Shown piece after piece: positions 1 through 54,585 of a DNA stretch of 64,000 nt. The notes under the pieces were generated by a model. That model was given only the letters and a program-made list of their open reading frames with translations, was not told the DNA's origin and did no database searches. The stretch spans positions 14,105,323-14,169,322 of the forward strand of contig CM119264.1 in the NCBI GenBank assembly GCA_051294375.1, given 5' to 3'. Source of the stretch: Paraspadella gotoi. Lineage: Eukaryota; Animalia; Chaetognatha. The position numbers and the translations under genes were made by a program. Positions within the stretch are counted from its first letter, which is position 1; each line of letters starts with the position of its first letter.

Positions 1-238
1 TTATTGAAGAGACAATAATTATTGTAATGTGGTAATGACAGAACCGTTCAATATAAGCAGTCCCTGAGCTTCGGATCAGGCTGTAACACCATGTTACAGG
101 CGGGTTAAGCGCCCCGTCCCTCTTAACTGCGAGACGACCACCGGGCTAAAACCTCGGACCTTTGGGTTGGGAGGCGAAGGATTTGCCTCCGGCACCAATG
201 GCCGCTGATGAACAGTTGGTGGAGTTTAGTCCACCATA
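1..238 (-). mobile_element. tRNA-headed, twister-containing SINE/retrozyme-like element, family B copy 1 (antisense, in an SLC5 intron; may run off the window edge)
   Basis: Second copy at 37475-38330. On the minus strand: hairpin TGGTGGA..TCCACCA (217-236); tRNA-like head 205->134 (7-bp acceptor GCGGCCA/TGGTCGT, A-box-like TGGTGCCGGAGG, B-box-like GGTTTTAGCCC); twister motif 130->57; AT-rich tail. Confidence 0.75.
57..130 (-). ncRNA. Twister ribozyme-like motif, type-P5 permutation
   Basis: Minus strand parses as GCAGT(P5) TAA GAGG(P2') GACGG GGCGCT(P1) T^AA CCC(P2) GC CTGTAACA-TGG-TGTTACAG(P3) CCTGA TCCGAAGC TCAGG(P4/L4) G ACTGC(P5). L4 CCG pairs with CGG of GACGG, compensatory to canonical CCC/GAGGG. 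Predicted cut between 107 and 106. Confidence 0.75.
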
Positions 239-7539: not shown

Positions 7540-7928
7540 GTCCAGTTTTGCTCCCTGGTCCTCGACAGACTAACTCGATCTAATCAAATGAAAAATAAAA
7601 AATAAACTTTGATCTTTTGTCTTCAGAAGAACGACGTGGCTTGTTGGATTCGATACGCACGCCCCTTTTTCTTTTTTTGATCTGAAATTTTCCCTTAAGT
7701 AAATTTTTATTTGGCCTTACCTTAAAATTATTAACATTTGTGCCAGAAGTCATTTTGTTATATTGATATTGTTCTTTTAATTATTTCGCAGAAAATTGTC
7801 GTTTATACCGGATGATTATATTAGAAATAGAAAACTCGAATATGAAACCTGACAATGGATACGCAGCGGAAAACTAACTTAAATTGACTAAAATCTTTCT
7901 ACACCTCATCAGTAGTATTTTCAACAAA

Positions 7929-24800: not shown

Positions 24801-25947
24801 AAGAAAAGAAGAAAAGAGAGAAAAACAGAGGGGGAAGAGGAGGTGGAAATGGAGGAAGAAGATGAGGAAAGAAAAGAAGAAAGAGAGAAAAAACAGAGGG
24901 GAGAGGAAGAGGAGGTGGAAGTGGAAGAAAGAAGAAGGGGAAAAGAAAAGAAAGAAAAGAGAAAACAGATGAGGAAGAGGAGGTGGAAAATAGGAGGAAG
25001 AAGAAGGAGGAAGAAAGAAGAAAGAAAGGGGGAAAGAGAAAAAGGAAGGAGGAGGTGGAGGAAGAAGAAAGAAGGAACGAAAAGAAGAAAGAGAGAAAAA
25101 CAGAGGGGGAGAGGAAGAGGAGGTGGAAGTGAGGAAAGAAGAAGAAGGAAAGAAAAGAAGAAAGAGAGAAAAAAACAGATGAGGAAAGGAGGTGGAAGTG
25201 GGAGGAAGAAGAAGGAGGAAAGAAAAAGAAGAAAGGAGAAAAATAGATAGGGGAAAGGAGGTGGAAATGGAGGAAGAAGAAAGGGGAAAGAAAGAAGGAA
25301 GAGAAAAAACAGATGAGGAAGAGGATGGTGGAAATGGAAGAAGAAGAAGGAGGAAAAGAAAAGAAGGAAGAGAGAAAACAGATGAGGAATAGGAGGTGGA
25401 AATGGAGGAAGAAGAAGGAGGAAACAAAAGAAGGAAGAGAGCAACAGAGGAAGGGAAGAGAAAGAAGGAGGAGGAAGGTGGAGGAAGACGAAGAAGGAAA
25501 GAAAAGAAGAAAGAGAGAAAAAGCAGAGGGGAAGAGGAAGAGGAGGTGGAAGTGGAGGAAGACNNNNNNNNNNNNNNNNNNNNNNNNNGAAGAAGAAGGA
25601 AAGAAAAGAAGAAAGAGAGAAAAACAGATGTTGAATTCGACCTCGATTCTTCGGGTTTCAACGAACTCGAATGGCTTTTTGTTAAGACGAAATTCAACTA
25701 TTTGAATAATTTTTACATATTTAATATGTTAAAGGGCTTAACTTGAATATGTCACGACAAAAGTTTTTTTTAACGAGGAAACGAAAAACAAAAGTTTTAA
25801 GTTAAAAGCAGAAAATTATCCAAATCAAAAATAGAAGGACTTTTTATTTGTTTCTTATTTTAAAGAAACATTTACGTAAGAAGACTGGGATTTCAACATG
25901 AAACCAAAAAAATTTACTTATTTGAATGTTTAGATTGTTAGATTGGC

Positions 25948-29237: not shown

Positions 29238-32200
29238 AAAAAAAAGAAAAAGAAGAAAAAAAAAAGTGATAAGAGATTTGACATCAATTTAGGTTTTTCT
29301 CCTCCGGCAGCCATTAATACTACTTGGGGTAAAAAGTAAGGGTCGTGAACGGAGAGAAAGTTGAAACCTTCAGCCCGAAACTAAAAAGAAAAAATGGTCT
29401 TCGGTTTTTGGCTATATTAAATTTTTGTTAGATTTTTTTTTTCGATGGGTAATATAGTATCTTGTTAAGTAAGAACGTGTGTGAACAAAATATCTCCGCC
29501 CCCGATAAAAGGCGTCTGTAATGAAGAATACTCCTGAACAAACGCATCGCTTTGTGACATATCAGTTGTCTTTTTTTAATCATTGTTTACTACTTTATGA
29601 ATGATAGAGCCATCTCAACGACTAATTATTTCAAACGAAAGATTTTCTGCAAATAATTTACGGGGGCAACAGAAAGCAATGAAGATGAAAACTGGCCAAC
29701 GATACAAAGAGACGAAGATCAGGGAGGCTGTGGACGGTGGGCGCGCCTTTCGCATGAGCGGGAAAACGAATCGGCGATTCGAGACTTTGATCCTTGCAGA
29801 AACAAAAGACGGACGGGAAAAAATTCCCTCGGCTTAAATCGCGTTAGTCTGTTCGCATTCTTTATATATATATATATTCACGGAAAATAAAAAGAAAAGA
29901 GAAAGGTGAATAAGAAGGAAAAAAACGAAAGGGAAAAAAAATCAACATTATTCACGATTAAAAGACAATCAACGTTAAAGTTCCTTTTTCTCTCACCAGC
30001 CTCTTTTCAATTTATAAGAAGGGACGGAAAGAGAAGTGATTGAGAGAGAGAGAGAGAGAGAAAGAAGGGGGGGGTTAAAAAAATTCAATTTGTTCCTAAG
30101 ATGAGGCCACCGTTTCTCTTCTTTTAATGGCACGAAAAAAAAGTAGCACCGCAGAAGAGAAATTGAAAACAGATGATATCACGTCAGCGCGAGCGGCCCT
30201 TTCGTTAATCCGGCCAACTAGTTTTTGGATAAAGAGATATTGAGAAGAAATCGGAGAGAGCAAAGGTGGAGATAAAATAAGTTACATCACACCACATCAC
30301 GCAAAACATTGTCGTTGAATTTTTATTACGAAATATATGTATTCCTATGTACTTATATTATTAATATTGTTGAACATAAACTTTTGCCAAACGTCGGAAT
30401 GTAATCAAAAAAATTTCATCAAAATGAGAGAAATACACACAGTAAGTAATTGCAAATTTCAAGGAAACAGAGCATTAACTTTTTGATTTAAGTAGTTCGA
30501 TAACTACATGCAAAATAGAAAGCTTGAATCCTGAAAATAATTTCAGACATGCGTTAAAACTCGCAGCCACAAAGGAACAACCAAAGAAGAGACATTCGAA
30601 AAAAAATGACGTAACCACCAAAAAACACACACAGTTCGACAATAAAAGCTCTGACAAAAAAAAGTTCAGCAAACCATTAAAGTACAAACAAATCCAAAAC
30701 TTCTAACAAAGTCGTCCGACCACAAAATCGTTAAACAGACACTCGAGACAAACAAATAAAAATCAAACTAACAAGCTCTTCGGACAAACAGACAGACGGA
30801 CAGACGTTAAGAGCCTTTGCTCCGTCATAAAACGCGAAAGGCAAAGGAAACGGAGGCTGAGTCCGCGACGAGTCTAAATGATATTCGTCTCGATTACCAT
30901 CGATGGCACCTGCGAGACTCGGAGATGCCGCCAAAGAGAAAGAGCAGATGCTGCCATGTTAGCCAGGCAACTAGAGAGCAGATGATGACGCTCCGTGTAG
31001 GGAAACGATAAAGCAGATGCTCAAGCGTGGGACAAGAGTTGATCGATGGCAAATGCCGATTCTTTTTTTTTTTGAGAGAGAGAAAATGGAAAAGACGTAA
31101 AATTGAAAAAAAAAATTAAAGACAAATAAAATATTGATCGGAAACCGACCTTTGCTTTCTTCAAGATCCTTTCCACTGTCTTGCATTCTTCAGTATTGTC
31201 GTCCTGGCAACAAAGACCACGACAAAATCTTGAAAGAACTGAGGGACCGTTGATTGGATGAGGTATTTGTTTGTTCCCATGAAAATAAGGAACGATTGAA
31301 TGGGCGGCTAAATGAATGAATGAGCCGAAAATAAAAAAAACTCGTGTTAAACAAAGCAGAGTCGACGTTATTTCAGATATAGTGGGTTTATTTGTAAAGG
31401 GGATGAACGACATAGATTTTATAATTATTTTTTTGCCGAGGATCCAACGAAAGAACGGGACAAACAATCCCAAACAGAGGACTGAGCTAACTTTAGTGAG
31501 CTTTAATTTGACTGTCAGTTTTTCTCTCTTTTCCTTGCGTTCGAATTTAGTGGTCAAAACTAAAGAAAAAACGAAACGGAAATGCCCGATTTGAAACGAC
31601 AACCACAGTGAGTCGAAAAGAGACTAGAACAAACTGACTGCCCGACAAACGTTGAGACGGACATTCGTACAGGTTTATTGCCTCTTCTCCTAATGGACCA
31701 TAGTCGCGTTTTAAACGACGTCGTTGGGGTTACAGTCAGTCGTAAGAACAGTGACCCCCCCTTGATGAGACTGGCAAGAGCGATTCTTTTTTCTCTGTGG
31801 AATTTCTTATTTATGGAATGACGTCTGCTTCTGACAAACGTAGGTTAAACAGCGCTCTATTTTCTTACGTTGACGTTCGCGTTGGCACGTAAGGATTTTA
31901 ATGACTTTTTTACCGTAGTAATGTTTAATTTATAAATAGTTATTAATTCAATTAATATAGAAAACTTCATTTATAAAGCTGCGAGTTAATAAAAGTGACT
32001 GTTAGAAAGTCAGAATTGAAAGCAGGGCTCTGCTATGTTATTATTGAAGGGGGATGGAGTCATTAAACAACCATGAAGGCATTAACCAACCATAGCCTTT
32101 TCAATTTGTTTATTTTTATGAAATTGGTGCGACAAATATAAAAATTATTCATCATATTAATAAATAAGCTATGGCTTCGCCTAGCAGGACCTGCAAGCTT

Positions 32201-33240
32201 TCAATCAAAACTCTCACACAATCTTGTTTATACACATATACACTCCAGGCTTCTCGATCAATAAAGTGGTATAATATTATAAAGAATGTTTCAATTGCGT
32301 AATATCTTGTTCCATAGTAGTACCATAAATCACGAGTGGATGATTCGCAATTGCGTCAATGATTTCTTCGATTTTCCACCGATTTTTTCCGGCGAAAGAA
32401 TTGAAGCGAAAGACTTTATTAAGAGGAGAAGAGTAAATTGAGGCCGGAGCGAGGAAAACGGAAGAAGGAAAGAAAAAAGGAAGAGAAATAAAAGGAAAAA
32501 AGGAGGGAGGAAAGTGAAGGAAAGGAAGGTAGGAAGAAAGAAATGGGGTAAAAAAAGAAAATTTAAGACGGACGAAAAAGGTCAGGAAGAAAGGGAGGGA
32601 GGAAAGGAAAAAGGAAGAAAATAGAAGAAAAGGGAGGGAGGAAAAAGAAAAAAGCAAAAGAAAAAAAGGAAATTAAAAAAGACGGACGAAAAAGGATAGG
32701 AGAAAGGGAGGGAGGAAAGAAGAAGGAAGGAAAAAAAGGAAGGGAGGAAGAAAGAAAAAGGGTGTAAAAAATAAAAATAGGGATAAAAAAAACCCGAAGA
32801 AATCTCGGAAGAAAGGAAGAAAGGAAGAAAGAAAAATGAGAAAAAAAAAAAGGAAAAAAAAGTAGAGAGAGACAGAAAAATTTTACTTGCGGCAGAAACT
32901 GTGGCGGGAAAACTGAAAATGACGTGTAAACGGAGATGGAATCGAAATGAGAATTGCAGGCGGCAATGGAAAAGCCCTTCTCACGTTTTTAATGCGGATG
33001 CAATAATTCAAGCGGAGACTTTCTCTGGTTTTCTCTCGATGAATTGCTTTTAGAATATCAACTGTTTCTGTTATTTATTGAAATTGGTTGTTTAATTTTA
33101 TTAATATTTTTTTTTATCAAACTTTATTTCGGCTTAAGCAATATTTCATTCAATTTTTTCTCTCTCTCTCGTCTTTATTCATTTGACGACGTTTTTCCCG
33201 AGGGAAACCTCTCCCCGCAATCTTTTCTCTCTCTCTCTCT

Positions 33241-33320
<80 letters not shown>

Positions 33321-34780
33321 CTTCATCTTTCTCGCCCGCCCCGTTTCCCCGAGGGTAGTCTCAGAATCGGAAATATTGCTTTGTCTGTCGGGCGTCAAAT
33401 AAATTCAAATCCTTTGACGACGAATTCTCACCTCCTTCACTTCCGCGCCTTACCTTCGCCTTACCTTCGCGCCCTTACCTTCGGGGGAAGGAAGATTTAA
33501 ACGGGGACAATGGGAACAATTTGGGAGAAAGAAAAGAGGAATGCAAAGAGAAAAGAGATTTTGAAGGAAAAAATTTGACGAAAATAGGATGAGAGGAAAT
33601 AGGAAATAGGAAATGATTATATATGATAATATGAGTTGGGCGAGGAAGGGACAAATGATCATTTTTTGTAATGCAATAGAAAATTTGTTAAAAATAAATA
33701 CATTAATAATATTAAACGATAATACATAAATATCAATACATAATTTTTAAATTTTTCAGAAAAACAAAGCTGAGTCTCTCTCGCTATTTACACTTTTGGT
33801 AGATAATTATAATTAGTTCCCACTGACAAGAAAACCTTTTACAAATTAAGCCTCGTCATAATATTTCAGTCTCTGTTATAAATCTCGTATATCATTTTTA
33901 TTTTTCTTTGTCTCTCTCTCTCTCTCTTTCTTTCTCTCTCCTCTCACGAATTCACGCACAAGGGAAGGAAAAAGAAATAAAGAGGAATAAAGAGGAGGCA
34001 CTCAAAAATGGGTTTTGAAGGAGGGAGGGCAAAGGGCCGATAACCCCCGGGTTATCTGATGGGATAAATAGCCAAAGTTTGAAGGATAAATATGTTGGAT
34101 TTGGGCCCATGGATTGAAGAGGGTTTACTGGAGCAAATGAATCAGAAAGTGAGAGGAGAAATTAAGTTGGAAAGTCACTCGAGATTTAGTCAGGATTTAG
34201 ACGTTTAGAGCGACGTCTGGATTTTATTTCCATTTTGATCAAATTTCCGATATTTAGTCGTCACTCGTCAGTATTATAATGGTCAACTTAAGAAATCGAG
34301 GCCTAATTAATAAATAATTATCCTTTACTGGATATCGTCATCGTCTTTAACATTGTTAATTACATTTAACTCTCGGACGTCTTCATCTTGGTCTTTATAG
34401 TCGAAATATATTTTCTCTTCTATCGTCGACGTGGCCGTAATAATAGTCGTCGTCGTCGTCGTCGTCGTCGTCGTTTCCACCGTTTCCTTACTCCTCGTCT
34501 CTGTCTCAGTCGCTGTCTCAGTCTCTCTCCCTGGGATCCGCTGCGTCGGCGGAAAAAGGCGAAGACCCGTTGACGGAGACAATCTGCTTCTGAAGCGATT
34601 AAGTCATCGTCGTCACGACGTCGTCGTCGTCGTCGTCGTCGTCTCTGCTTCCTTCGTCGAGATGATCAAATTGTTGTTGTTCTCGTCGTCGTTTTCTTTG
34701 ATATCATCGCCAAGAATCGTTTTGAAATATTTCTTTATCTAGAGAATGAGAAGACAGTGACGATAGAAATGCGAGAGATA

Positions 34781-34840
<60 letters not shown>

Positions 34841-34910
34841 CTATTCTATTTCTCTCACGCGAATCAGAATTCCTAGCTTTTCAGTGTTCTCTTCATAAAT
34901 CTTTTTAATC

Positions 34911-34973
<63 letters not shown>

Positions 34974-37536
34974 TCTCTCTCATTCACTCTTTTCCTTTCG
35001 TCTAAACAATCTTCTCTCCCTACCAATAATCTCTTAATTTATTGCCTTCTGGTCCCTTCGATTGCTTTCTGCTTTCATTTTCTGCAGCAACATTCGTCTT
35101 TTTTCTTTCTTATATTATTTCTTTTTTCGTTACTTTTCTACAATTTATTGGGATGTCAGTCGTTTCGAAAACTAGACGTATTTACTATATAAATTTGGTA
35201 TCGTTGGAAAGAGAATGGCGAAATTAGCCGAAATCCAAAATTTCATGTAAAATCGGACGACGCGTTCAAAAGTAATCGGCAAAAAAGACCGCGAAAAACG
35301 CGGTCTCGGCGGATCAACTCGCGCTATTTAAAAGCGATTCCGTTTTGGTTCTACCAAAGAAAGTACTACGTAGTTCAAATCCTTAGAACGCCGAATTTAG
35401 CCTAAGTCTCGTATGCGTGATCCGGGCCTCATAAGAATTAATCTTAACTACCGAAGCCTCGGACGAAGAAGTAATAACACGTGTAAACAAAATAGAAGGG
35501 AAATAATTCATTTTTTATTACAAATTATGCATAAATAAACTAAAAAAGCATTATGGCAAAAAATTATAGCCAAGAAAAGACTTAATTTTAAGTAAAGAAA
35601 TGCGTGGAGGCAGGAACGGTTTTACCGTGATTAAATTTTGTGCAGTGTTGCAGATTTGTGTGATAGTAGAAATCAACTATTACTTTATAACTATTACCAT
35701 TAGAAAATTTATAATTTTCGTAATTAATTCTGAATGAACAGAGATTGTGAAGAATGTTTGTTCTTCATGCCAGCCGAGACGCGCATTCCGAACGTCGCCC
35801 GTGCCGAATGTTTTAAACATGAGATCGCAACGATTAAGAAAAACGCAGAATAAAGTTTTATAAGTTTAATTTCTTTGTCAAAAGGTTCATATGGAAACTC
35901 GTAAAAACGGAGTTTCGTCACAGGCAAACGTGAGTTTATAAGTCTTCAAGAGAAACTAAAAAACGATTACATATCTCTCTCTTACTTCGATAAAATGCCC
36001 GCAAAAATTTGGCAAAACGCTGAAATCAGCCAAGGTCAAGTAAAACCCTGATATTAGGTACAAAACAAGGCAGAATATTTCACAGAGATTAAATTCTAAA
36101 TATTTGCTAGGTATGACGAAAGTAAATTTAATATTTATATTTGCACATGTTATTGAGATGATGAAGAGTCAATTCGGATCTCGACGAAGGATTTGAACTG
36201 TAAAGAGGGTTCTCCGCGAACGGATCCACGGCAGACGACGTCGTCGGGCGCGGCTCACTTCATCATGAGCAGCTGTGGCTCTCTTCAGGATACTTTGGAC
36301 TTTCAACGATTGACTCATGAACTGCCGGCGTAAGGAATCCTTAAATTAAATATATAGCAACAAATCAAAATAATGTAAAGCGGTTTAACTGCATTATTAT
36401 TTTTAAACAAAATTGTTTTTGTTGAATTTACCAGTTTGTAATCCGGAAGTGATCGCCTATCAAGTGACAGTTACAACTTGTGTAGTTTATAAAGCCATAT
36501 AGTACAGCATCCATCTGTATATTAAATTAAAAATGATACTTAGTATAACAGTATTATTATTATTATTTGTGTTTCTAAATACTTATGCAGTTGCATGAGA
36601 GAGGAACAGACAGGTCATTGAATTATATGAGCAAGTACTCTCAGTACTACTTACATAAGTAAGGATTCGCTGGTCCATCCTCCCAAAATACGCTGAGAAT
36701 CCTTTCTTTGGCGAGCCGCTTTGTTTGGGACATAAAATCATCGTCAGACAAGGTTTTGTGGCTAGAGTGGATCGCAATATAAAGTTTTTCTCTCTTTAGG
36801 TCTGTAAAGATATAAATATTGTATTTTTTATTCTTTAAATATAAAAAAATATTTCTATATAGCTTTTTTTAAATAAATTTATTAATATTAAAATATAAGT
36901 TTTTTAATTTTAATTGAAATTATCATTGTATTAATTCTTTCTTTTCGTTGCGTTTGAGTTTTATATGAGAAAATAATTTTTCTATCAACAACGATGGTAT
37001 ATTCAAAATCAGACATGTTTCGAATTTTATCATTACAACCTGTTAAGCGCTGATAGAAGATTTGTAATGTAAAGTAGAAAATAAACCATCTTTGTTGATA
37101 AAGAAATTATTTTTTCTCATTTAAATTATCATATATTTAAGCTGAAACTTAATTTAAAACTTAACCCTAACTTACCCCTAAACCCTCCCTTACCTCTAAC
37201 TTTAAACTTAACTTAAGCTTTAATTCTAATTTTATTCTTAACCCTAACTTAAGTTTAACATACCCTTAACTCTAACTTATCTTAACTCACTGTAAAGAAT
37301 CCCACCTCCTCAACATAAGCGGAGAGGGAGTAAGACGTCAGAGAGAAACCGTACTGAAGACCGGGATCGCCGGCGCCGTAATGTTTCTAATACTCAGTGT
37401 CCATTCGCGAGTGACATCTCATCCACTTGGCGTTTTGTTAATATTTAGTACCTTAATAAAATCAAGCATATAAATATTGAAGAGACAGTGATAATTATTA
37501 TGTGTTAGTGACAGAAAACCGTTCAATATAAGCAGT

Positions 37537-38145: not shown

Positions 38146-38149
38146 ATAA

Positions 38150-38222
38150 GCAGTCCCTGAGCTTTGGATCAGTCTGTAACACCGTGTTACAGGCGGGTTA
38201 TGCGCCCCGTCCTCTTAACTGC
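38150..38222 (-). ncRNA. Degenerate twister-like motif (family B copy 2)
   Basis: Same layout as 57-130, but L4 TCCAAAGC breaks one T1 pair with GACGG, P4 has a terminal mismatch and P2' is shortened. Confidence 0.55.
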
Positions 38223-41200
38223 TAGGCGACCACCGGGCTAGAACCCCTGACCTTTGAGTTAAGAGGCCAATGACTTGCCTCCGGTACCAATGGCCACTGA
38301 TGAACGGTTGGTGGATTTTAGTCCACCATAAATATTCCATTTGCTGTTGCCGGCGAGCAAATATATATCAGACAAACGATACTACAAATTATTATAAAAC
38401 ACAGAATAATCACGATTTTATTATATAAAACTACAGAAGATATCCAAACGTTTATTAGTTTGAAAAATTGAATCCTGTCCCGAATGATCGCAAGAAATAA
38501 TAAAATGGTTTAGTAATAATAGAAATTTAGAAATAATAAGAATATAATATAATAATAAAAATAATATATAAATTAGCATTTTTGATAATAAATATCTTGA
38601 ATACCGTAATCAATGGTCATGATAGATTATTTTAAGTTTAACGCTGTATAACATTAGCATTTAAATTCATCGGCTATGGCTACTTGAGTGCTCCACTCTA
38701 CTGAATAGTAACGAACGACGTAAAGCACAAATGATGAAATGATCCAAACGGTAAAGGCTTGTCACGAAGTACAAACTAAGATATCAAAATTTCATATACA
38801 CAAGTACAATTTTTTTTTTTCTGAAAAGAAAAAAAGACAACAAAACAAATGAGGTAGACTGGTCGTCCAAACTGGGCATCAAACATTTAAAAACAAAATA
38901 CGGAGAATCACAGAATTGACTATCACAGAAAAATTCTAACACACAGTACGAGAAATACATTTATAATTTCTACCTGTAATGAATACAGTCGTGACCAGCG
39001 CGGCCATGTCGTTAATAAATGAGTCCTCTGGTCCGACGAGGGTTCGCTTATCCTCCAGTCCTCTTTCTTCAACGACAAATGAACATACTCCTCCTACGCC
39101 GGCTCTAGACCAATGCGCTCAAAACAAAGGAAGAACTAGCATAAGTTATGAAATACCTTATTAAACTTAATATTATATTCTAATAAAGTATTATTATTAA
39201 TTAGAAATTAAATATAAAAACTTCTTTACGCTTTAATTTTTTCGTTTTCTTATAATAAATCCTCTCCGCTTCAACGCCATTGACTGAGCTCCATAAACGC
39301 CATACACGTGACCAGAGACGATCGTAACAGAAAAGATCTCCGTAGCCTTTTTAGATATAGATGTTTATAATAATATAATTTATAATATAATATAATTTTA
39401 AAAAGTTTGAGCGGGAAAGATGTTTCATAATAAACGAGCTACAAAAATCCTCTTCTGAACTTCAGGCTGAAGCGCGGTTGCTCGTGCGCTACGGCCATAG
39501 GCTTTCGGATTTTGATTCGCGGTAGAGCTCAATTATGCGCGTTTGGGTCCAATATAGACTGTTAAATCGAAGCAAAAGCGCCTTTGATTTCTTCGGATTT
39601 ATTTTAACATGTTTAGAGATATTAAGCCTCGTTCAGCGTCACAACCTAAAAGATGAAAGTAGAGCACACCTGTAAGACATTTCTAACTCATGCTATTCAA
39701 AATGGACATTCTTCGTGGGCATGACGTTGGGAAATTGAGCTAAAAAAGGAGTTCATTTGATTACCAAAACAAGCAATCAAGCTTGGAATTTTTTACCTTT
39801 TTTTTAGCTCAATGGATAGAGAAAACCATGGGCTTTTCATATATAAACGTCAAAATGAAGTACGGTTCTTTATTATTGAAGAACGAGCTGGTCTACGGAG
39901 AGTAAGTTACGAAGGGGTCAAACCAGTCAACTTCAAATGCATTTTAAATACATGAAAAAATGAAATTTCCGCTCGCGCTCCACCTCGATGCCCTGCCCAA
40001 GACCCTACACTTTCAGAATCTACCCATATTATTACTATTTATAAAGGCTTGACCATGGGATTTATATAGAATCGATTTCAAGCGAAAACTTGATCCACCC
40101 GTCGACCGAAACGACTGACATCCCCAAATTTATGTATATTTTCTCAATTTAATATATACTTTTTTCTTTTTTCGTAGTCGTCAACACTTTTTTTACAAGT
40201 TCCTACTTTTAATTTAAGATTTCTTGTTTCAGTATATTTTTAGACAAAATAATTTAAAATGTCAGAAAATATTGTTATAATTTTATTAAAGTAAAACATT
40301 TTGTTTAAGAAAAACATTTTTAACTCGGTACAACATATTTTAAAATTCTAACAATTATATTTTTAATTATATTGGTTTCATTGAAATTAGTAATATATAT
40401 TTTAATATTTCAATTGTATCCGTTTTTTTTCCTTCCCCAATGTCACTTGCTATATTTACTTTCCATCCTGCCCAATATTTTTTCACTTACCCTTCTCCCC
40501 TCACCTCCGCCTCACCCTGGCGGCTCTTCCCTCATTTCCCATTACATCTTCATTGTCGAACCAGGAAAATGCTTTCAACGAACTCTTCGCATTTCTCACT
40601 CTTGACGACGACGATGACGACGACGATGACTACGTCGTCGCACAAACGCAACGACGAAGACGATGACGAAGTTGACGACGATGACGACGACGAAAAAAGA
40701 AACGGAGGAATTTATCTAGGATTACAAAGAAAATCGCTAAGCTGACTCCGAAGATGATATATAATTACGAGTGCGATTAAAATATTTCCACTGTTTACAT
40801 AAAGACGGAAAACATCGACAATGATGACGCCACCATAAGTGATGATAAAGATAACGCTGACGCTGACGCAGAGAAAGACTGTAATTGATTGATCTGTCAA
40901 TAGCGATTGAAAATATTTTTTTTAACGCTCTCGAATAAACTCTTTAACGAATTTCCAAATAGCCTGAGTCCAATCTCAACGTATCATCCCAATTTTTTAA
41001 CCACCTCCACCTGCATACATTCCGATTCTTCCCGTCAAACCAGCATGGCCCAATGTCTTCTCCTTTCTGTCCTCCATCTCCTTCCCTAACCAGTGGCCAC
41101 TCCTCTCGGAGTAAACGTCTTTTCAACCTCTCTTCCCGACAAATCTCTCGTCCATTTTTCTTTTTCCTTCGTTTCCCTTTCTTTCCTTTCCTCCTCGCTT

Positions 41201-42723
41201 TCCTTTCCTCCTTCCTCCCTAATCTCCGATCCATTTTTCTTATTTCATCCCCAGCAAGAATTGGCGCGCGCGACTCGCCACCGCGGTGATCGAAACCCAC
41301 TTTTTTTTTCACATTTTTTTTTTATTCCGTGAATTATTTTCTCTCGGCGAGCGAAGGCTTAACTCTGGTCAAGCTGAAGAACCAATCGGATTAAAAAAAA
41401 AAGGGGTTTTAATGACTTTTTTACCGTAGTAATGTTTATATTATAACATAGTTATTTAATTCCAATTCAATATAGAAAACTTCATTTATAAAAGCTGCGA
41501 GTTAATAAAAGTGACTGTTAGAAGTCAGAATTGAAAAGCAGGGCTCTGCTATGTATATTGAAGGGGGAATGGAGTCATTAAACAACCATGAAGGCATTAA
41601 CCACACCATAGCCTTTTCAATTTGTTTATTTTTATGAAATTGGTGCGACAAATATAAAATTATTATTCATTCATTTAATAAAATAAGCTATCTTGCCCTA
41701 GCAGGACCCTGCAAGCCTTCATCACTAATCCAATTTATAACTTACACAGTCCTTCAAAAGGGAAAATAAGATTTTCATCTGCGTAATCTTGAAATACCAT
41801 AAATCACGAGTGGATGATTCGCAATTGCGTCAATGATTTCTTCGATTTTCCACCGATTTTTCCGGCGACAAAGAATGAAGCGAAAGACTTTATTAAGAGG
41901 AGCAAGAGGTAAATTGAGGGCCGGAGCGAGGGAAAACGGAAGAAGGAAAGAAAAAAGGAAGAGAAATAAAAGGAAAAAAGGAGGAGGAAAGTGAAGGAAA
42001 GGAGGTAGGAAAACAGAAATGGGGTAAAAAAGAAAATTAAGACGGACGAAAAAGGTCAGGAAGAAAGGGAGGGGAGGAAAGAAAAAAAGGAAAGAAAATA
42101 GAAGAAAAGGGAGGGAGGAAAAAGAAAAAGCAAAGAAAAAAAGGGAAATTTAAAAAAGACGGTACGAAAAAGGATAGGAGAAAGGAGGGAGGAAAGAAGA
42201 AGGAAGAAAAAAAAAGGGAGGAAGAAAGAAAGGGTGTAAAAAATAAAATAGGATAAAAAAACCCGAAGAAATCTCGGAAAGAAAGGAAGAAAGGAAGAAA
42301 GAAAAATGAGAAAAAAGAAAAAAAAAAAAAAAAGTTTAGAGAGAGACAGAAAAATTTTACTTGCGGCAGAAACTGTGCGGAGAAAACTTTGAAAATGAGT
42401 GTAAACGGAGATGGAATCGAAATGAGAATTGCAGGCGGCAATGGAAAAGCCCTTCTCACGTTTTTAATGCGGGATGCAATAATTCAAGCGGGAGACTTTC
42501 TCTGGTTTTCTCTCGATGAATTGCTTTTTAGAATATCAACTGTTTCTGTTAATTTATTGAAATTGGTTCTTGTTTAATTTATTAATATTTTTTTTATCAA
42601 ACTTTATTTTCGGCTTAAGCAATATTTCATTCAATTTTTTCTCTCTCTCTCGTCTTTATTCATTTGGACGACGTTTTTCCCGAGGAAACCTTCTCCCCGC
42701 AATCTTTTTCTCTCTCTCTCTCT

Positions 42724-42814
<91 letters not shown>

Positions 42815-44291
42815 TTCATCTTCTTCACCCGCCCCGTTTCCCCCGAGATCTCAAGAATCGGAAATATTGTTTGTCTGTCGGGCGTCAACATAATTCAAAT
42901 CCTTTGACCGACGAATTCTCACCTCCTTCACTTCCGCGGCCTTACCTTCGGCCTTACCTTCGCGCCCTTAACCTTCGGTGGAAGGAAATTTAAACGGGGA
43001 CAATGGGAACAATTTGGGAGAAAGAAAAGAGAATGCAAAGAGAAAAGAGATTTGTGAAGGAAAAAAATTTGACGAAAATAGGATGAGAAGGAAATAGGAA
43101 ATAGAGAAATGATTATATATGAATAATTATGAGTTGGGCGAGGCAAGGACAATGATCATTTTTTGTAATGAAATAGAAATCTGTTAATAAATAATACATT
43201 AATTAATATTAAACATAATACATAAATATCAATACATAATTTTTAAATTTTTCAGAAAAACAAGCTGAGTCTCTCTTTGCTATTTACACTTTTTGGTTAG
43301 ATAATTATAATTAGTTCCCACTGACAAGAAAACCTTTTACAAATTAAGCTCTCGGTCATAATATTTCAGTCTCTGTTATAAAATCTCGGTATAATCATTT
43401 TTTATTTTTCTTTGTCTCTCTCTCTCTCTCTTTCTTTCTCTCTCCTCTCACGAAATCACGCACAAGGGAAGGAAAAAGAAATAAAGAGGAATAAAGAGGA
43501 AGGCACTCAAAAATGGGTTTTGAAGGAGGGAGGGCAAAGGGCCGATAACCCGGGTTATCTGATGGGATAAATAGCCAAAGTTTGAAGGATAAATATGTTG
43601 GATTTGGGCCCATGGATTGAAGAGGGTTTACTGGAGCAAAATGAATCAGAAAGTGAGAGGAGAAATTAAGTTGGAAAGTCACTCGAGATTTAGTCAGGAT
43701 TTAGACGTTAGAGCGACGTCTGGATTTTATTTCCATTTTGATCAAATTTCCGATATTTAGTCGTCACTCGTCAGTATTATAATGGTCAACTTAAGAATCG
43801 AGGCCTAATTAATAAATAATTATCCTTTACTGGATATCGTCATCGTCTTTAACATTGTTAATTACATTTAACTCTCGGACGTCTTCATCTTGGTCTTTAT
43901 AGTCAATATATTTTCTCTTCTATCGTCGACGTGGCCGTAATAATAGTGTCGTCGTCTCGTCGTCGTCGTCGTCGTCGTTTTCACCGTTTCCTTACTCCTC
44001 GTCTCTGTCTCAGTCCTGTCTCAGTCTCTCTCCCTGGATCCGCTGCGTCGGCGGAAAAAGGCGAAGACCGTTGACGGAGACAATCTGCTTCTGAAGCGAT
44101 TAAGTCATCGTCGTCACGATCGCAGCGTCGTCGTTCGTCGTCGTCGTCGTCGTCTCTGCTTCCTTCGTCGAGATGATCAAATTGTTGTTGTTCTCGTTCG
44201 TCGTTTTCTTTGATATCATCGCCAAGAATCGTTTTGAAATATTTCTTTATCTAGAGAATGAGAAGACAGTGACGATAGAAATGCAGAGATA

Positions 44292-44360
<69 letters not shown>

Positions 44361-44450
44361 TCTTCTCTCTCTCTCATTCTATTTTATTTCTCTCACGCGA
44401 ATCAGAATTCCTAGCTTTTCAGTGTTCTCTTCATAAATCTTTTTAAATCA

Positions 44451-44503
<53 letters not shown>

Positions 44504-46035
44504 TCTCTCTCTTCTCTCTCTCTCTCTCCCTCACTCTTCTCTTCATTCACTCTTTTCCTTTCGGCTAAACAATCTTCTCTCCCTACCAATAATCTTCTTA
44601 ATTTATTGCCTTCTGGTCCCTTCGAATGTCTTTCTGCTTTCATTTTCTTGCAGCAACATTCGTCTTTTTTCTTTCTTATATTATTTCTTTTTCGTTACTT
44701 TTCTACAATTTATGTATATTTTCTCAATTTATATATATTTTTCTTTTTTCGTAGTCGTCAACACTTTTTTACAAGTCCTACTTTTAATTTAAATTTCTTG
44801 TTTCAGTATATTTTTAGACAAAATAATTTAAAATGTCAGAAAATATTGTTATAATTTTATTAAAGTAAAACATTTTGTTTAAGAAAAAACATTTTTAACT
44901 CGGTAACAACATATTTTAAAATTCTAACAATTATATTTTTAATATTATTGGTTTCATTGAAATTAGTAATATATATTTTAATATTTCCATTGTATCCGTT
45001 TTTTTTCCTTCCCCAATGTCACTTACTTGTATATTTACTTTCCATCCTAGCCCAATATTTTTTCACTTACCCTTCTCCCCTCACCTCGCCTCACCCTGGC
45101 GGCTCTTCCCTCATTTCCCATTACATCTTCATTGTCGAACCAGGAAAATGCTTTCAACGAACTCTTCGCATTTCTCACTCTTGACGACGACGATGACGAC
45201 GACGATGACTACGTCGTCGCACAAACGCAACGACGAAGACGATGACGAAGTTGACGACGATGACGACGACGAAAAAAAGAACGGAGGAATTTATCTAGGA
45301 TTACAAAGAAAATCGCTAACGCTGACTCCGAAGATGATATATAATTACGAGTGCGATTAAAATATTTCCACTGTTTACATAAAGACGGAAAACATCGACA
45401 ATGATGAGCGCCACCATAAGTTGATGATAAAGATAACGCTGACGCTGACGCAGAGAAAGACTGTAATTGATTGATCTGTCAATAGCGATTGAAATATTTT
45501 TTTTAACGCTCTCGAATAAACTCTTTTAACGAATTTCCAATAGCCTGAGTCCAATCTCAACGTATCATCCCAATTTTTTAACCACCTCCACCTGCATACA
45601 TTCCGATTCTTCCCGTCAAACCAGCATGGCCCAATGTCTTCTCCTTTCTGTCCTCCATCTCCCTTCCCTAACCAGTGGCCACTCCTCTCGGAGTAAACGT
45701 CTTTTCAACCTCTCTTCCCGACAAATCTCTCGTCCATTTTTCTTTTTCCTTCGTTTCCCTTTCTTTCCTTTCCTCTCGTTTCCTTTCCTCCTTCCTCCCT
45801 AATCTCCGATCCATTTTTCTTATTTCATTCCCCAGCAAGAATTGGCGCGCGCGACTCGCCACCGCGGTGATCGAAACCCACTTTTTTTTTCACATTTTTT
45901 TTTTATTCCGTTGAATTATTTTCTCTCGGCGAGCGAAGGCTTAACTCTGGTCAAGCTGAAGAACCAATCGGATTAAAAAAAAAAGGGGAAGGTATGCGAT
46001 GGAAGGCGATGCGAGCAAAGGCGCGATGCGGACGT

Positions 46036-46104
<69 letters not shown>

Positions 46105-46221
46105 CTTAAGATCGGAAGTTGCGTTGAAGTACAACAACAAAGAAGAAAAAAAACTCCATTGAGGCGAAGATGCGATCGGTTCATGAATTCTTGATTGGGA
46201 CGAGGGACGTGGCCGTCGCCG

Positions 46222-46284
<63 letters not shown>

Positions 46285-46506
46285 TCCCCGCGCCGCCGCC
46301 GCCGCCGCCGCCATGTCGCTTTTATCTCGTTCACGGTTTGCGCGGTGATAGATAATTGGATTAAATCCCCGTCACGTAATAAATCTGTTTTGCCCAATTC
46401 GCGTCTGTCCGAACCAATTGGTTATTTTCGGTATTTAATTATTTATTAGTTATTAGTCGGGCATAGCAAAGTTCACCCCGCATCTAAGTATGACACCTTC
46501 AGTCCT

Positions 46507-46580
46507 GACCCGGTGGCTCATTGAGTAAAGCCATCAGCTCATGACCACTAGGTACCGGGTTCAATCCCAACCCGGTACCA
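46507..46580 (+). promoter_or_regulatory. tRNA-derived Pol III internal promoter head (second copy 46918-46990)
   Basis: A-box-like TGGCTCATTGAG, B-box GGTTCAATCCC, acceptor-like ACCCGG/CCGGGT (copy 2), anticodon-loop-like CTCATGA; the anticodon stem does not pair, so this is not a functional tRNA. Confidence 0.75.
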
Positions 46581-46593
46581 ATCCCACTACCCT

Positions 46594-46672
46594 GCGGGAA
46601 GTGTGAGGACGGCCGTAAAGCCGCCTTGGGGGCGTGAAAACCCTCAAGCCTGGTTCCAAGCCCAGGACCCGT
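46594..46672 (+). ncRNA. Twister ribozyme-like motif, type-P5 (family A copy 1)
   Basis: GCGGG(P5) AA GTGT GAGGA CGGCCG(P1) T^AA AGCC GC CTTGGGGG..CCCTCAAG(P3) CCTGG TTCCAAGC CCAGG(P4/L4) A CCCGT(P5). L4 TCC pairs with GGA of GAGGA. P2 is imperfect. Predicted cut at 46616/46617. Confidence 0.7.
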
Positions 46673-46996
46673 TCCATAGCTGCTAGAGGGGTTTAAAGAA
46701 GTTATGGATAGTCATCTTCAGCCCACATAGCGCCTTATCCACACTGGTGAGCCCATCCTGTCGAGTGTTTTCCAACCTTCTGATTCCAGGCCCATGGACG
46801 TGCTGAAGATTGCTCCCCTCCCTCCACTGGAAGCAGTGCAGGGTGGGTTACAATCTGGGGGCATGTAGTCGGCCATAGCAAAGTTCACCCCGCCTCTAAG
46901 CATGACCCTTCAGTCCTGACCCGGTGGCTCATTGAGTAAAGCCATCAGCTCATGACCACTAGTACCGGGTTCAATCCCAACCCGGGTACCTACCCT

Positions 46997-47073
46997 GCGG
47001 AAGTGTGAGGACGCCGTAAAGCCGCCTTGGGGGCGTGGAAAACCCTCAAGCCTGGTTCCAAGCCCAGGACCGT
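46997..47073 (+). ncRNA. Twister ribozyme-like motif, type-P5 (family A copy 2)
   Basis: Same core; P5 is GCGG/CCGT (one pair shorter on both strands), P1 is CGCCG. Predicted cut at 47017/47018. Confidence 0.65.
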
Positions 47074-47704
47074 TCCATAGCTGATAGAGGGGGTTAAAGA
47101 AGTTACGGATAGTATCTTCAGCCCACTTTAGCGCCTTATCCACATACTTAGTTTATTCATCTTTTAACATTATTTGTTGATTTATTATTATAATAGCGAA
47201 CGTACTACATACGTACGTACGTACATACGTACGATTATAAAACATGGAACAACGAGTATTGATGTGACTTAATTTCCTGGCATTCCGGCATTCCACTCAG
47301 GGACGGACGCTGACGCCACGGACAGGAAACACGAGACGATACGAGGAGAGAGAGAGAGAGAGAGAAGAGAGACAGAGAGAGAGAGAGAGGAGAGAGAGAG
47401 AGGAAGAAAGGAAAAGAGGTTGGCGCCGACTCAACAAACAGAGAAAGGGAAAAAGCGGACGAGGCGAAACGAATCGGGCAAATAAAACCCGAGCGCCAAA
47501 CAGAAGACAGACATGACAGAGACAAAAAAAAAAGACAAAAGGCGCTCTGGAGATGGCGCTGTGGACGTCGACAGATTATCGAATTTTTAAAAAAAAAGAA
47601 AAAAAAACTGGATCTACTGATCCGGTTTCACTGAAAGACTCTCGGGAGAATCGTCGGTGATAATTCACTGCGGGAGAATGTGAAGCCTAGGATTTAACTC
47701 CTCC

Positions 47705-47776
<72 letters not shown>

Positions 47777-47963
47777 GTTTCTAATTGATACAGACACTCA
47801 CACCCAGACTTGCAGACCCACCAAACACGCCTACGAATTAAAGCACACTTCTCTTGTTAGTTGTTTAAAATCTTGGAATAAATCATGATTCTNNNNNNNN
47901 NNNNNNNNNNNNNNNNNAAGGCATTGCGATGGAAGGCGATGCGAGCAAAGGCGCGATGCGGAC

Positions 47964-48034
<71 letters not shown>

Positions 48035-48265
48035 AGATCGGAGTAGCGATGCACTTGAAGTACAACAACAAAGAAGAAAAAAACTCCATTGAGGCGAAGA
48101 TGCGATCGGTTCATGAATTCTTGATTGGGACGAGGGACGTGGCCGTCGACGCCGCCGCCGCCGCCGCCGCCGCCATGGTCGCTTTAAAAGTATCTATGAC
48201 ATGTGAAGTAGAAAAGGGGGCAAAATGATATCATATATGAATATGATTCAGATGCAGATCAGTCA

Positions 48266-52962: not shown

Positions 52963-54585
52963 GCAATCCTCAACCCTTCTATTTGATATTCTCTTTGCCT
53001 TCTTTTTTAATTCTTCTCTTATCTCTGCATCTCTTTTTCTTTTCCTCTCCATTTTCTTTTCTTATCTGCGATAACGATGCTAATGCTGATGATGACAAGA
53101 GACGATGCCGACGACGACGACGACGAACGCGACGAAGAAGCCGAGTGCAACGTGAAATACGAAAGACGTACAATCCTTACAACTGCCTAAAGTAAATCGG
53201 GAGAGATTTTCACTTTTGACGAGGAATTCAAATCTGCAATCAAAATTAAGAAAAGCCTATTTGAAATTTTTTCGAATTTTATAAGGATTAGTACTAATAT
53301 ATAAATATAGCCTAATCTGTGAAATTAAAAAAATAAAATTAATTTTTTTTTTACAATTAATGTTCACTGATGTATGTTGTTCATATATTTATATTAGAAT
53401 TTTCATATGTAACATTCACTTACGGCTTAGTGCATACTGTACTAGTAATTCTTAAGAAGTAACCATGTACTTCTGGCGCAGGTAAAATGAATTTCGAGTG
53501 AAAAAAAATAATATGAACGTATCTTCGTNNNNNNNNNNNNNNNNNNNNNNNNNTAAATCGCCAACTCCCTTCACGGACGTCACGATTATAAATATTGACG
53601 TCGAAGCCCAAGAGTGCATACTAAGGCGTAGTTAAATTTCTAATTTAAACTTTAATTTAAATTATAAAAGTGAGAACGAACAACATTATACTAATGAACA
53701 TTTATGTAATAAAAAATATTTATAATAAATTTTACAATTTACGCAGTAGGCCATATTTTATACTAGTACTTAATCTATTAAATGTTAAAATTTCAAAACA
53801 TTTTTTTCTTAAGATTTTTTTGCAGATTTGAATTCGTCATAAAAAGTTGATAGAAAGAAATATAACTCTTTTGAAAAATTCCTTCATTAGGGGACCCAGT
53901 GATAAAAATGATATCATAAGCTTAAGGGTCTATCATCAAATCTCTCCTCTGGGGGTGGGGGGTGTGAAAACCAAGTGCTGGAGGATGGCGGAAAATGGCT
54001 CGTGTCTCTTTGACTATAAAAATAAAGCAGTCAGTGAAGTAAACTGACAGAATTTCAATAAAATGACATGAAATGGTTGACAGAGGGCAAAATGACATTA
54101 CGCGTCAAAGAGTTGTCAAAGTTCACAAGTTAATTAACGACGAAGAAATAAATAATTTGTGAAGAACAAATGACAACAATTAAATCTTTAAGCAGCGCTC
54201 TCCTAATGATTTCGTCTTTTAGAAACTGCAAACGACTTTTTGGGATTTAACTCCTCCCGCTCGCAATCTCGCGAGGGAATTGAAATTTTTACAATCACTT
54301 AATTTAAAACAACATCGAAAGATTGGAGACGGAGGAGGCGGGGCCGACGGCGGAAGTTGGAGGAGATGAAAGAAGTCGATTGAAAAGGAAAGAAATTAAG
54401 GAGAAGAAAGGAAAAGTCTTGAAGGGGAGGAAAGAAAGAGAGACTGAAGAAAAAAAAAGGATTAAAGAAAATGAATGAGGAGAAAAAGCAAAAATAAAGA
54501 GAAAAGAAATAAGAGATAAAAAAGGGGAAAATAGAGAATGAAAGAAAGAGAGAGATGAAGAAGGAAAGAAAGAAGGAAAGAAGGA

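Follow-up and report, generated by a model that had tools for sequence, protein, structure and literature searches.

In a 64,000-nucleotide stretch of the genome of the chaetognath Paraspadella gotoi (assembly GCA_051294375.1, contig CM119264.1, positions 14,105,323 to 14,169,322 of the forward strand; this whole stretch is called the window, and coordinates count from its first letter), we found a 692-bp non-coding element made of two long terminal repeats (LTRs) and a short internal region, each LTR carrying a tRNA-like head followed by a motif of the type-P5 twister, a self-cleaving ribozyme. The family to which it belongs is abundant, and the window holds a full-length copy. Judging from sequence, we favour with moderate confidence its interpretation as an animal LTR retrozyme built on a twister and RNA polymerase III (Pol III), which would move through an RNA circle of ~410 nt.

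Layout of the element

46453..47144, plus strand: whole element, 692 bp, LTR, internal region and LTR
46453..46743, plus strand: 5' LTR, 291 bp, with a CA end, without the G of the family's TG start
46744..46863, plus strand: internal region, 120 bp, non-coding
46864..47144, plus strand: 3' LTR, 281 bp, TG...CA
46745..46762, plus strand: primer-binding-site (PBS)-like stretch, opening with TGG, one base past the 5' LTR end
46856..46863, plus strand: polypurine-tract (PPT)-like G run, directly before the 3' LTR
46447..46452, plus strand: left side of a candidate 6-bp target-site duplication (TSD), 5/6 identical to 47145-47150, single locus
47145..47150, plus strand: right side of the candidate TSD, 5/6 identical to 46447-46452

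Comparison of the window with itself aligned 46454-46743 with 46866-47144 at 91.8% identity over 293 columns (E 6e-111), confirming a duplication reported in an initial annotation made from the letters alone, and yielded no third copy of this arm in the 64 kb. As delimited above, the 3' LTR shares 270 identities with the 5' LTR, with 7 substitutions and 18 gap columns. The features found are those of a terminal-repeat retrotransposon in miniature (TRIM) of the Helenus type (PMC10886601): two LTRs, TG...CA ends (in the 3' LTR and in family contigs, which have the G missing from the 5' LTR of the window copy), a length below 1 kb and non-coding sequence, both frames of at least 60 aa inside the element giving no Pfam match. 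The G run adjoins the 3' LTR as a PPT would, and its border (G run, CA, then TG) resembles internal ends in the Helenus set (PMC10886601), many family contigs having an extra G in the run. The TGG lies where a PBS is expected, the primer being a putative host tRNA. Self-priming was rejected because no more than 6 nt of the PBS-like stretch can pair with the element, and a second PBS-like 9-mer at 36709 was discarded as it lacks an LTR context. We assign the LTR/TRIM architecture with high confidence.

The approximate TSD of the initial annotation survived in part: the 5/6 match is present and weak, its chance at one fixed boundary being 0.019 given the flank composition, and higher if neighbouring boundaries are allowed. 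No 4-bp match was seen at the element boundary at this one locus.

Copies of the family in public sequencing runs

Eleven public runs contain part of the stretch; none of them is on record as RNA, though X9 might be. The contigs aligned on 46330-46890 numbered 4551, 5453, 1789 and 451 in the runs X1, X3, X5 and X9, respectively, and the evidence from loose contig ends comes from 24 of 1025 loose-end rows, to which the statements on listed rows refer. The summed depth of the family was thousands of times that of the flank, depth not being equal to copy number, and the internal region stayed below most LTR bins. Among the rows listed, 79, 78, 37 and 20 contigs in X1, X3, X5 and X9 end at 46743, the equivalent of 47144, where the second copy stops; beyond it stand unlike, AT-rich letters (agreement 0.40-0.44 in the four runs). 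At the other side, 46 contigs in X1 and 43 plus 30 in X3 have loose ends before 46469-71, their loose letters being the element's first bases from TG on with AT-rich sequence before them, which places the family start at a TG ~54 nt upstream of the tRNA-like head. The rows listed include no start-type row for X5 or X9. Most of the others listed are element sequence across indels, with a few true unlike ends (46577 and 46677 in X9).

These fixed start and end points, and the equivalence of 46743 and 47144, define the element as LTR 46453-46743, internal region 46744-46863 and LTR 46864-47144. The initial annotation had proposed a permuted insert of ~1.7 copies stopping mid-unit; the dominant fixed ends of the family refute this, since 46453 and 47144 are its LTR ends. 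From the same proposal, the mobile family with a tRNA-type promoter, two type-P5 motifs and a cut-to-cut distance of ~400-410 nt stood, and the non-LTR tandem similar to Sm-alpha found no support, the 120-bp piece having primer-binding-like and polypurine-like ends that are missing in animal non-LTR retrozymes as far as PMC7229834 describes them.

Both the LTR-internal and the internal-LTR junctions are bridged by contigs in studies P1-P3, and a contig from P4, an unrelated metagenome study, has both in order (X10 record 1; 320 nt, LTR 3' part, internal region and LTR 5' part, with 14 other letters). An assembly artefact, which the initial annotation had named as a refuting outcome, is thus excluded at the level of the family by runs of four studies. 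For the left flank junction of the window copy there is one matching contig (X5 record 17, 46338-46514, 0 other letters, 1 gap). The right one is unconfirmed, the sole contig listed (X3 record 23, which might represent an empty-site allele) starting at 47145 with its preceding 68 letters unaligned. At 46355 (a missing T) and 47257 (a T read as G), all covering runs differ from the window, suggesting assembly errors, so that some differences between the LTRs may be errors as well. The window copy is probably decayed or carries such errors.

A type-P5 twister motif in each LTR

46594..46672, plus strand: type-P5 twister motif, copy 1 (pair tables, descriptor tests), with the following parts, all on the plus strand
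46594-98 with 46668-72: P5
46601-04: P2 strand; 46605: general-base G
46607-09 with 46655-57: T1; 46623-24 with 46660-61: T2
46610-15: P1; 46616/17: cut U^A
46625-48: P3; 46649-66: P4
46996..47072, plus strand: type-P5 twister motif, copy 2, its P1 palindrome and P5 each one base short in the assembly

The general-base G, U^AA, L4 and the pseudoknots T1 and T2 that make up the type-P5 core were all found. As the initial annotation had stated, each copy combines an A/B-box-like head with a twister-like motif, and the predicted U^A sites, 46616 and 47017, are 401 nt apart. In copy 1, T1 forms 3/3 pairs plus an A.A, T2 2/2, P4 5/5 and P3 8/8, with pairing probabilities of 0.75-0.98 for P3 and P4 in context, and P5 is present in the minimum-energy fold of the isolated motif. 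P1 is a single pair in the monomer. P2, whose poor pairing had been noticed from the start, probably consists of two pairs, a bulge and one further pair.

A twister descriptor matched both LTR copies and its full pattern was found in 0 of 20,000 dinucleotide shuffles of the LTR (48 of 20,000 for the upstream half of the pattern, before its fixed point). With the 16-nt P4/L4 word, 30 viral loci were retrieved, of which 18 were type P5 by pattern, 3 type P1 and 9 neither, the upstream half of the pattern having played no part in the retrieval; 12 distinct phage P5 twisters among them covary as expected. One phage-like viral contig bears two type-P5 twisters 685 bases apart (L015 and L016). Relatives of the element were sought in viral contigs with three patterns, with 0 found, and 20 metagenome matches to a short-P1 pattern had neither a BLAST match to the unit nor an LTR-like direct repeat; we put them down to chance or to type-P1 twisters. 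Rfam matches with E as high as 10 included no hammerhead. A type-P1 reading through the 3' GA at 47083-84, as in the Rfam alignment, was rejected: T1 fails, and 47084 is C in copy 1 and in most of the family.

The variants listed among family contigs lie in the P3 loop and the P2 strand; the cut-site core, P4/L4 and the stems of P3 have no listed variant. At 46602, most of the family has C, the window copy T and one of two X10 contigs G. At the cut site, about half of the family depth has two A residues instead of three; with three, the cut in the window copy may fall one base later than 46616/47017. We consider the twister fold very probably genuine, and it is likely to be active in at least part of the family.

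A second family with the same module

53..238, minus strand: family B copy 1, with leader, tRNA-like head and a complete type-P5 twister motif (130-57) with other stem letters
38146..38330, minus strand: family B copy 2, 89% alike, with a damaged twister motif

The next match in the window of a model built from the phage P5 twisters (14.2 bits) led to a second repeat, here family B, the LTR element being family A. Its unit is 186 bp long, with a leader of ~33 nt that contains a 7-bp hairpin, and in copy 2 one G is missing before the general base and one T1 pair is broken. The copies share start and stop points without clear TG...CA ends or a TSD, and could represent solo LTRs from a sister family. 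The similarity between families A and B (score 35) does not rise above that of shuffled sequence (mean 28, maximum 50). Even so, pairing is kept with changed letters in P5, P1, T1 (2/3 pairs), P3 and P4, so that stem covariation is present between the families, in a comparison of two sequences in a register set by hand, and T2 and the catalytic bases are identical. In both, a bulged base separates two pairs of P2 from a G-C pair, and its position is the variable 46602 of family A; P5 and P4 of family B have pairing probabilities of 0.8-0.99. A descriptor with free T1, P2 and P4 letters had three matches in the window, in the two LTRs and in copy 1 of family B, compared with zero in 100 block-shuffled windows. 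The same layout in two dissimilar families, with changed letters in five stems, supports the fold.

A palindromic P1

46609..46616, plus strand: self-complementary P1 region and predicted dimer interface, with a palindromic tetraloop on a single C-G pair

P1 has six bases in both families, a single pair that closes a palindromic tetraloop, the latter differing between them; 6-mers of this kind make up 96 of the 4096 possible. The P1 duplex of family A was calculated at -14.1 kcal/mol (8 nt), versus +2.4 to +3.0 for the hairpin, and that of family B at -8.3 kcal/mol (6 nt); in LTR copy 2, whose palindrome is one base short, the self-duplex reaches just -3.6 kcal/mol. Among the rows listed, the palindrome is present in loose-end consensus rows of X1, X2, X3, X5, X9 and X10. 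Amphibian hammerheads with one pair and a palindromic tetraloop cut better as dimers (PMC7229834), and by analogy the twisters might cut as a dimer through P1, a tentative idea that we hold a little less probable than its opposite. Families A and B may share ancestry, P1 is dispensable in type-P1 twisters (PMC11662667), and our literature search found no natural twister dimer.

A probable tRNA-like promoter

46507..46580, plus strand: tRNA-like stretch, likely internal Pol III promoter (sequence, fold)
46514-46525, plus strand: A-box-like (sequence)
46558-46568, plus strand: B-box-like (sequence)

The stretch folds into two hairpins rather than a cloverleaf (fold z -6.1), and ARAGORN called 0 tRNAs in the window, for which reasons a functional tRNA gene was rejected. 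A CAT triplet at 46540-42 and the subfamily variants point to the initiator tRNA-Met as a possible source. Positions 46506-46572 are without a listed substitution at 8% or more among family contigs. The sole plus-strand T4 run of the window copy, at 46768-71, is absent from family contigs (46769 is A in ~100%), so that Pol III could read from LTR to LTR. A and B boxes thus lie inside the LTR as in Helenus; of the motifs named for that group, TRGCY and GGTTC are present in the LTR and YGG is absent (PMC10886601).

Proposed life cycle and alternative readings

From what can be read directly in the DNA (the LTR-internal-LTR layout, the fixed family ends, the tRNA-like boxes and the twister pattern), we infer the following steps. 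Pol III would start near 46507 and read through both LTRs. The two twisters would then cut at U^A, freeing one unit of ~400-410 nt that carries a 5'-OH and a cyclic phosphate at its ends and lacks a terminal repeat; a host RtcB-type ligase would close it. A host tRNA would prime at the PBS-like site, and an autonomous LTR retrotransposon would supply the reverse transcriptase that copies the circle and the integrase that inserts LTR-internal-LTR; recombination or short copies would give rise to solo LTRs. As a more speculative step, two ribozymes could pair via the palindromic P1 and cut as a dimer, sparing the circle, which has one ribozyme. Since cuts in both LTRs leave a unit without the R repeat, a circle is a plausible template for tRNA-primed reverse transcription. 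PMC4918200 puts forward this life cycle for the LTR retrozymes of plants, and in animals retrozyme RNA is circularised by RtcB (PMC7229834); on these analogies, an RNA circle is somewhat the better guess for the intermediate. In the window, 118 of the 131 higher-complexity frames of at least 60 aa gave no Pfam match and hence no reverse transcriptase; of the other 13, nine overlap a NACHT-Kelch gene (see below), two were scanned separately and two lie over microsatellites. In the cut-to-cut RNA, the LTR end 46714-46722 was predicted to pair with the internal 46802-46810 over ~9 bp.

A number of observations weigh against this interpretation. The Rfam search by Infernal that the initial annotation had suggested as a check turned out negative, with 18.3 bits for twister-P1 (cut-off 67.2) and 15.6 bits for Twister-P5 (cut-off 37.6), and no Rfam family attained its gathering score anywhere in the window. 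The model of 12 phage P5 twisters gave the two copies 32.1 and 29.9 bits, a small margin over the 19.9-25.9 of nine word-only controls, and its register of the window copies differs from the one set by hand. The pairing probability of P5 is 0 in the context 46560-46720, the G-C pair of P2, invariant in 12/12 phage examples, is unformed here in the direct register, and the loose-end subfamily of X5 and X9 has an A at 46608 that breaks a T1 pair. That type-P1 twisters tolerate defects in P1 and P2, but none in pseudoknots or catalytic bases (PMC11662667), speaks for the fold, but these tolerance data are limited to type-P1 permutations. The free-letter descriptor was written after the motifs were known, and it missed the damaged family B copy 2. 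Shuffled sequences fold as well as the cut-to-cut RNA (z -0.44), whereas the RNAs of animal hammerhead retrozymes are described as highly structured (PMC4918200). The candidate TSD has a mismatch and exceeds the 4 bp reported for animal Helenus elements and plant retrozymes. A hairpin without its loop is automatically a palindrome, and the P1 palindrome may thus be a by-product of loop loss. Circle, cleavage, transcription and dimer are predictions from DNA sequence, and the primer tRNA and the autonomous partner element are postulated.

A bolder version of the proposal would see an undescribed clade of animal retrozymes, that is, Pol III-driven LTR elements whose twisters cut solely as a P1-joined, domain-swapped dimer, with at least two diverged families bearing the module in one genome and a circle that might also replicate as RNA. 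We regard it as rather unlikely. Its twister dimer would be a natural counterpart of the engineered twister-pair cassettes for circular RNA.

Two more conservative readings are, in our judgement, each improbable. According to one, an active twister merely trims a linear RNA, removing the tRNA head or setting the 3' end, and reverse transcription uses a linear template cut at one of the two sites, with no circle needed. A single cut would leave a terminal repeat for ordinary strand transfer, the 5' ends of Perere-3 RNA are trimmed by twisters (PMC8501958), and a unit RNA that is not unusually structured agrees with this; but the same ribozyme stands in both LTRs, hence both should cut, and animal cells ligate such ends by RtcB (PMC7229834). 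The other takes the element for an ordinary Helenus-type TRIM whose mobile form is a linear RNA bearing a short terminal repeat, its twister being a dead relic captured, for example, via a short interspersed nuclear element (SINE) carrying the 5' end of an RTE long interspersed nuclear element (LINE). The architecture fits Helenus (PMC10886601), RTE 5' parts are common as SINE bodies (PMC5786205), RTE elements carry twisters (PMC8501958, PMC7761336), and the weak P2, the low Rfam scores and the T1 pair broken in one subfamily are what a relic might show. However, neither the catalytic bases nor the two pseudoknots are damaged, all stems persist in two dissimilar families despite changed letters, and the twisters of RTE 5' ends have an open terminal P1, unlike the P5 permutation found here (PMC8501958).

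A non-LTR retrozyme or dimeric SINE with permuted ends, inserted through target-primed reverse transcription of a circle, would account for two ribozymes one unit apart, for a TSD that may be longer and looser than integrase-made ones and for the module in family B without clear TG...CA ends, and the loose-end evidence to the contrary is those 24 of 1025 rows, but it is very improbable in view of the dominant fixed ends at TG and CA, the lower depth of the internal piece and the precise coincidence of the LTR borders with PBS-like and PPT-like motifs, motifs that animal non-LTR retrozymes are described as lacking (PMC7229834).

Other features of the window

7878-11798, plus strand: intronless frame of ~1290 aa, NACHT (E 1.3e-09) and C-terminal Kelch repeats (E 1.9e-25)
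1246-1560, plus strand: exon of an SLC5 sodium/solute symporter
45995-46245 and 47925-48174: 250-bp direct repeat (94%), bracketing the element at 200-800 bp
13380-19706 / 20326-24820 and 31893-35148; 40127-41406 / 41404-45988: kilobase tandem segmental duplications
15114-15517 (77%) and 53212-53382 / 53678-53847 (75%): inverted repeats

The NACHT-Kelch frame has a NOD-like receptor (NLR)-like architecture with a beta-propeller sensor. Named matches of the SLC5 exon are all animal and at most 62% identical (centipede, snails, priapulid), and two unnamed proteins reach 70-72%. The segmental duplications, with 83-98% identity and adjoining N gaps, may be real or assembly duplicates. The inverted repeats are possibly old miniature inverted-repeat transposable elements.

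Comparison with known systems

LTR retrozymes have been described in plants and non-LTR ones in animals, all of them with hammerheads (PMC4918200, PMC7229834, PMC7761336, bioRxiv 10.64898/2026.07.22.740005, each for the part available). Our literature search, whose scope excluded Repbase, Dfam and Roth et al. 2014, returned no twister-bearing LTR element and no animal LTR retrozyme; the element could be filed in one of those three without its ribozyme being noted. The animal non-LTR hammerhead retrozymes, including tRNA-bearing repeats of schistosomes, have units of 170-400 nt and share with the present element an animal host and ribozymes one unit apart (PMC7229834; bioRxiv 10.64898/2026.07.22.740005). 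They are described as tandem arrays with type I hammerheads and a Penelope-like link, without LTR, PBS or PPT; the arrangement found here is not of that kind.

As regards the ribozyme, the motif shares with the type-P5 twister (Rfam RF02684) and its phage examples (L002-L029) the strand order, the general-base G, U^AA, T1 and T2, and with the latter an identical 16-nt P4/L4 word. It differs in a P1 of 6 nt, compared with 16-26 nt in 12 phage examples, a long P3 and a weaker P2. The twister T-variants of the Perere-3 RTE LINE likewise sit in an animal retrotransposon and tolerate extra A residues at the cut site, but Perere-3 is an autonomous non-LTR element with a single ribozyme having a terminal P1 at the 5' end (PMC8501958).

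With Helenus/TRIMp3 (Kojima 2024, PMC10886601), the element shares a TRIM layout below 1 kb, a tRNA-derived A/B-box promoter in each LTR, a PBS (here a PBS-like stretch), a PPT, solo LTRs and animal hosts, and also a tRNA-like part that is no cloverleaf gene and does not match the PBS. TSDs in that group are 4 bp in animals and 5 bp in fungi (PMC10886601). Here a ribozyme motif follows the tRNA-like part, whereas Helenus is described without ribozymes: a term search of the available text of PMC10886601 gave 0 mentions of twisters, and in its consensus set three 9-nt twister loop words had 0 matches and a 7-nt word four, none in a twister context by eye, FASTA line breaks being able to hide ~1/9 of motifs in these searches.

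Plant LTR retrozymes (PMC4918200) have in common with it the non-coding LTR-internal-LTR layout, a PBS (here a PBS-like stretch), a PPT, solo LTRs, a self-cleaving ribozyme in each LTR (here predicted) and a cut-to-cut RNA without R that would need circularisation. They carry a type III hammerhead in a plant host, in contrast to a type-P5 twister in an animal, and their unit (697-776 in the Jatropha example, PMC4918200) compares with ~410 nt. Their TSD is 4 bp, against apparently 5-6 bp, and the tRNA-like promoter inside the LTR sets the chaetognath element apart from them. With a twister-like motif in place of the type III hammerhead, it is LTR-retrozyme-like but no member of the plant family. 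Its sequence would best fit a Helenus-type TRIM working like an LTR retrozyme, outside the plant family defined by the hammerhead. If this is true, LTR retrozymes include animal as well as plant elements and twister as well as hammerhead forms, eukaryotic twisters gain a concrete role beyond RTE 5' ends, and, as variants scoring so far below the Rfam cut-offs would be missed by standard scans, our descriptor offers a way to look for such elements in other animals. Two classes described apart, Helenus/TRIMp3 and the retrozymes, would then be joined in a single element.
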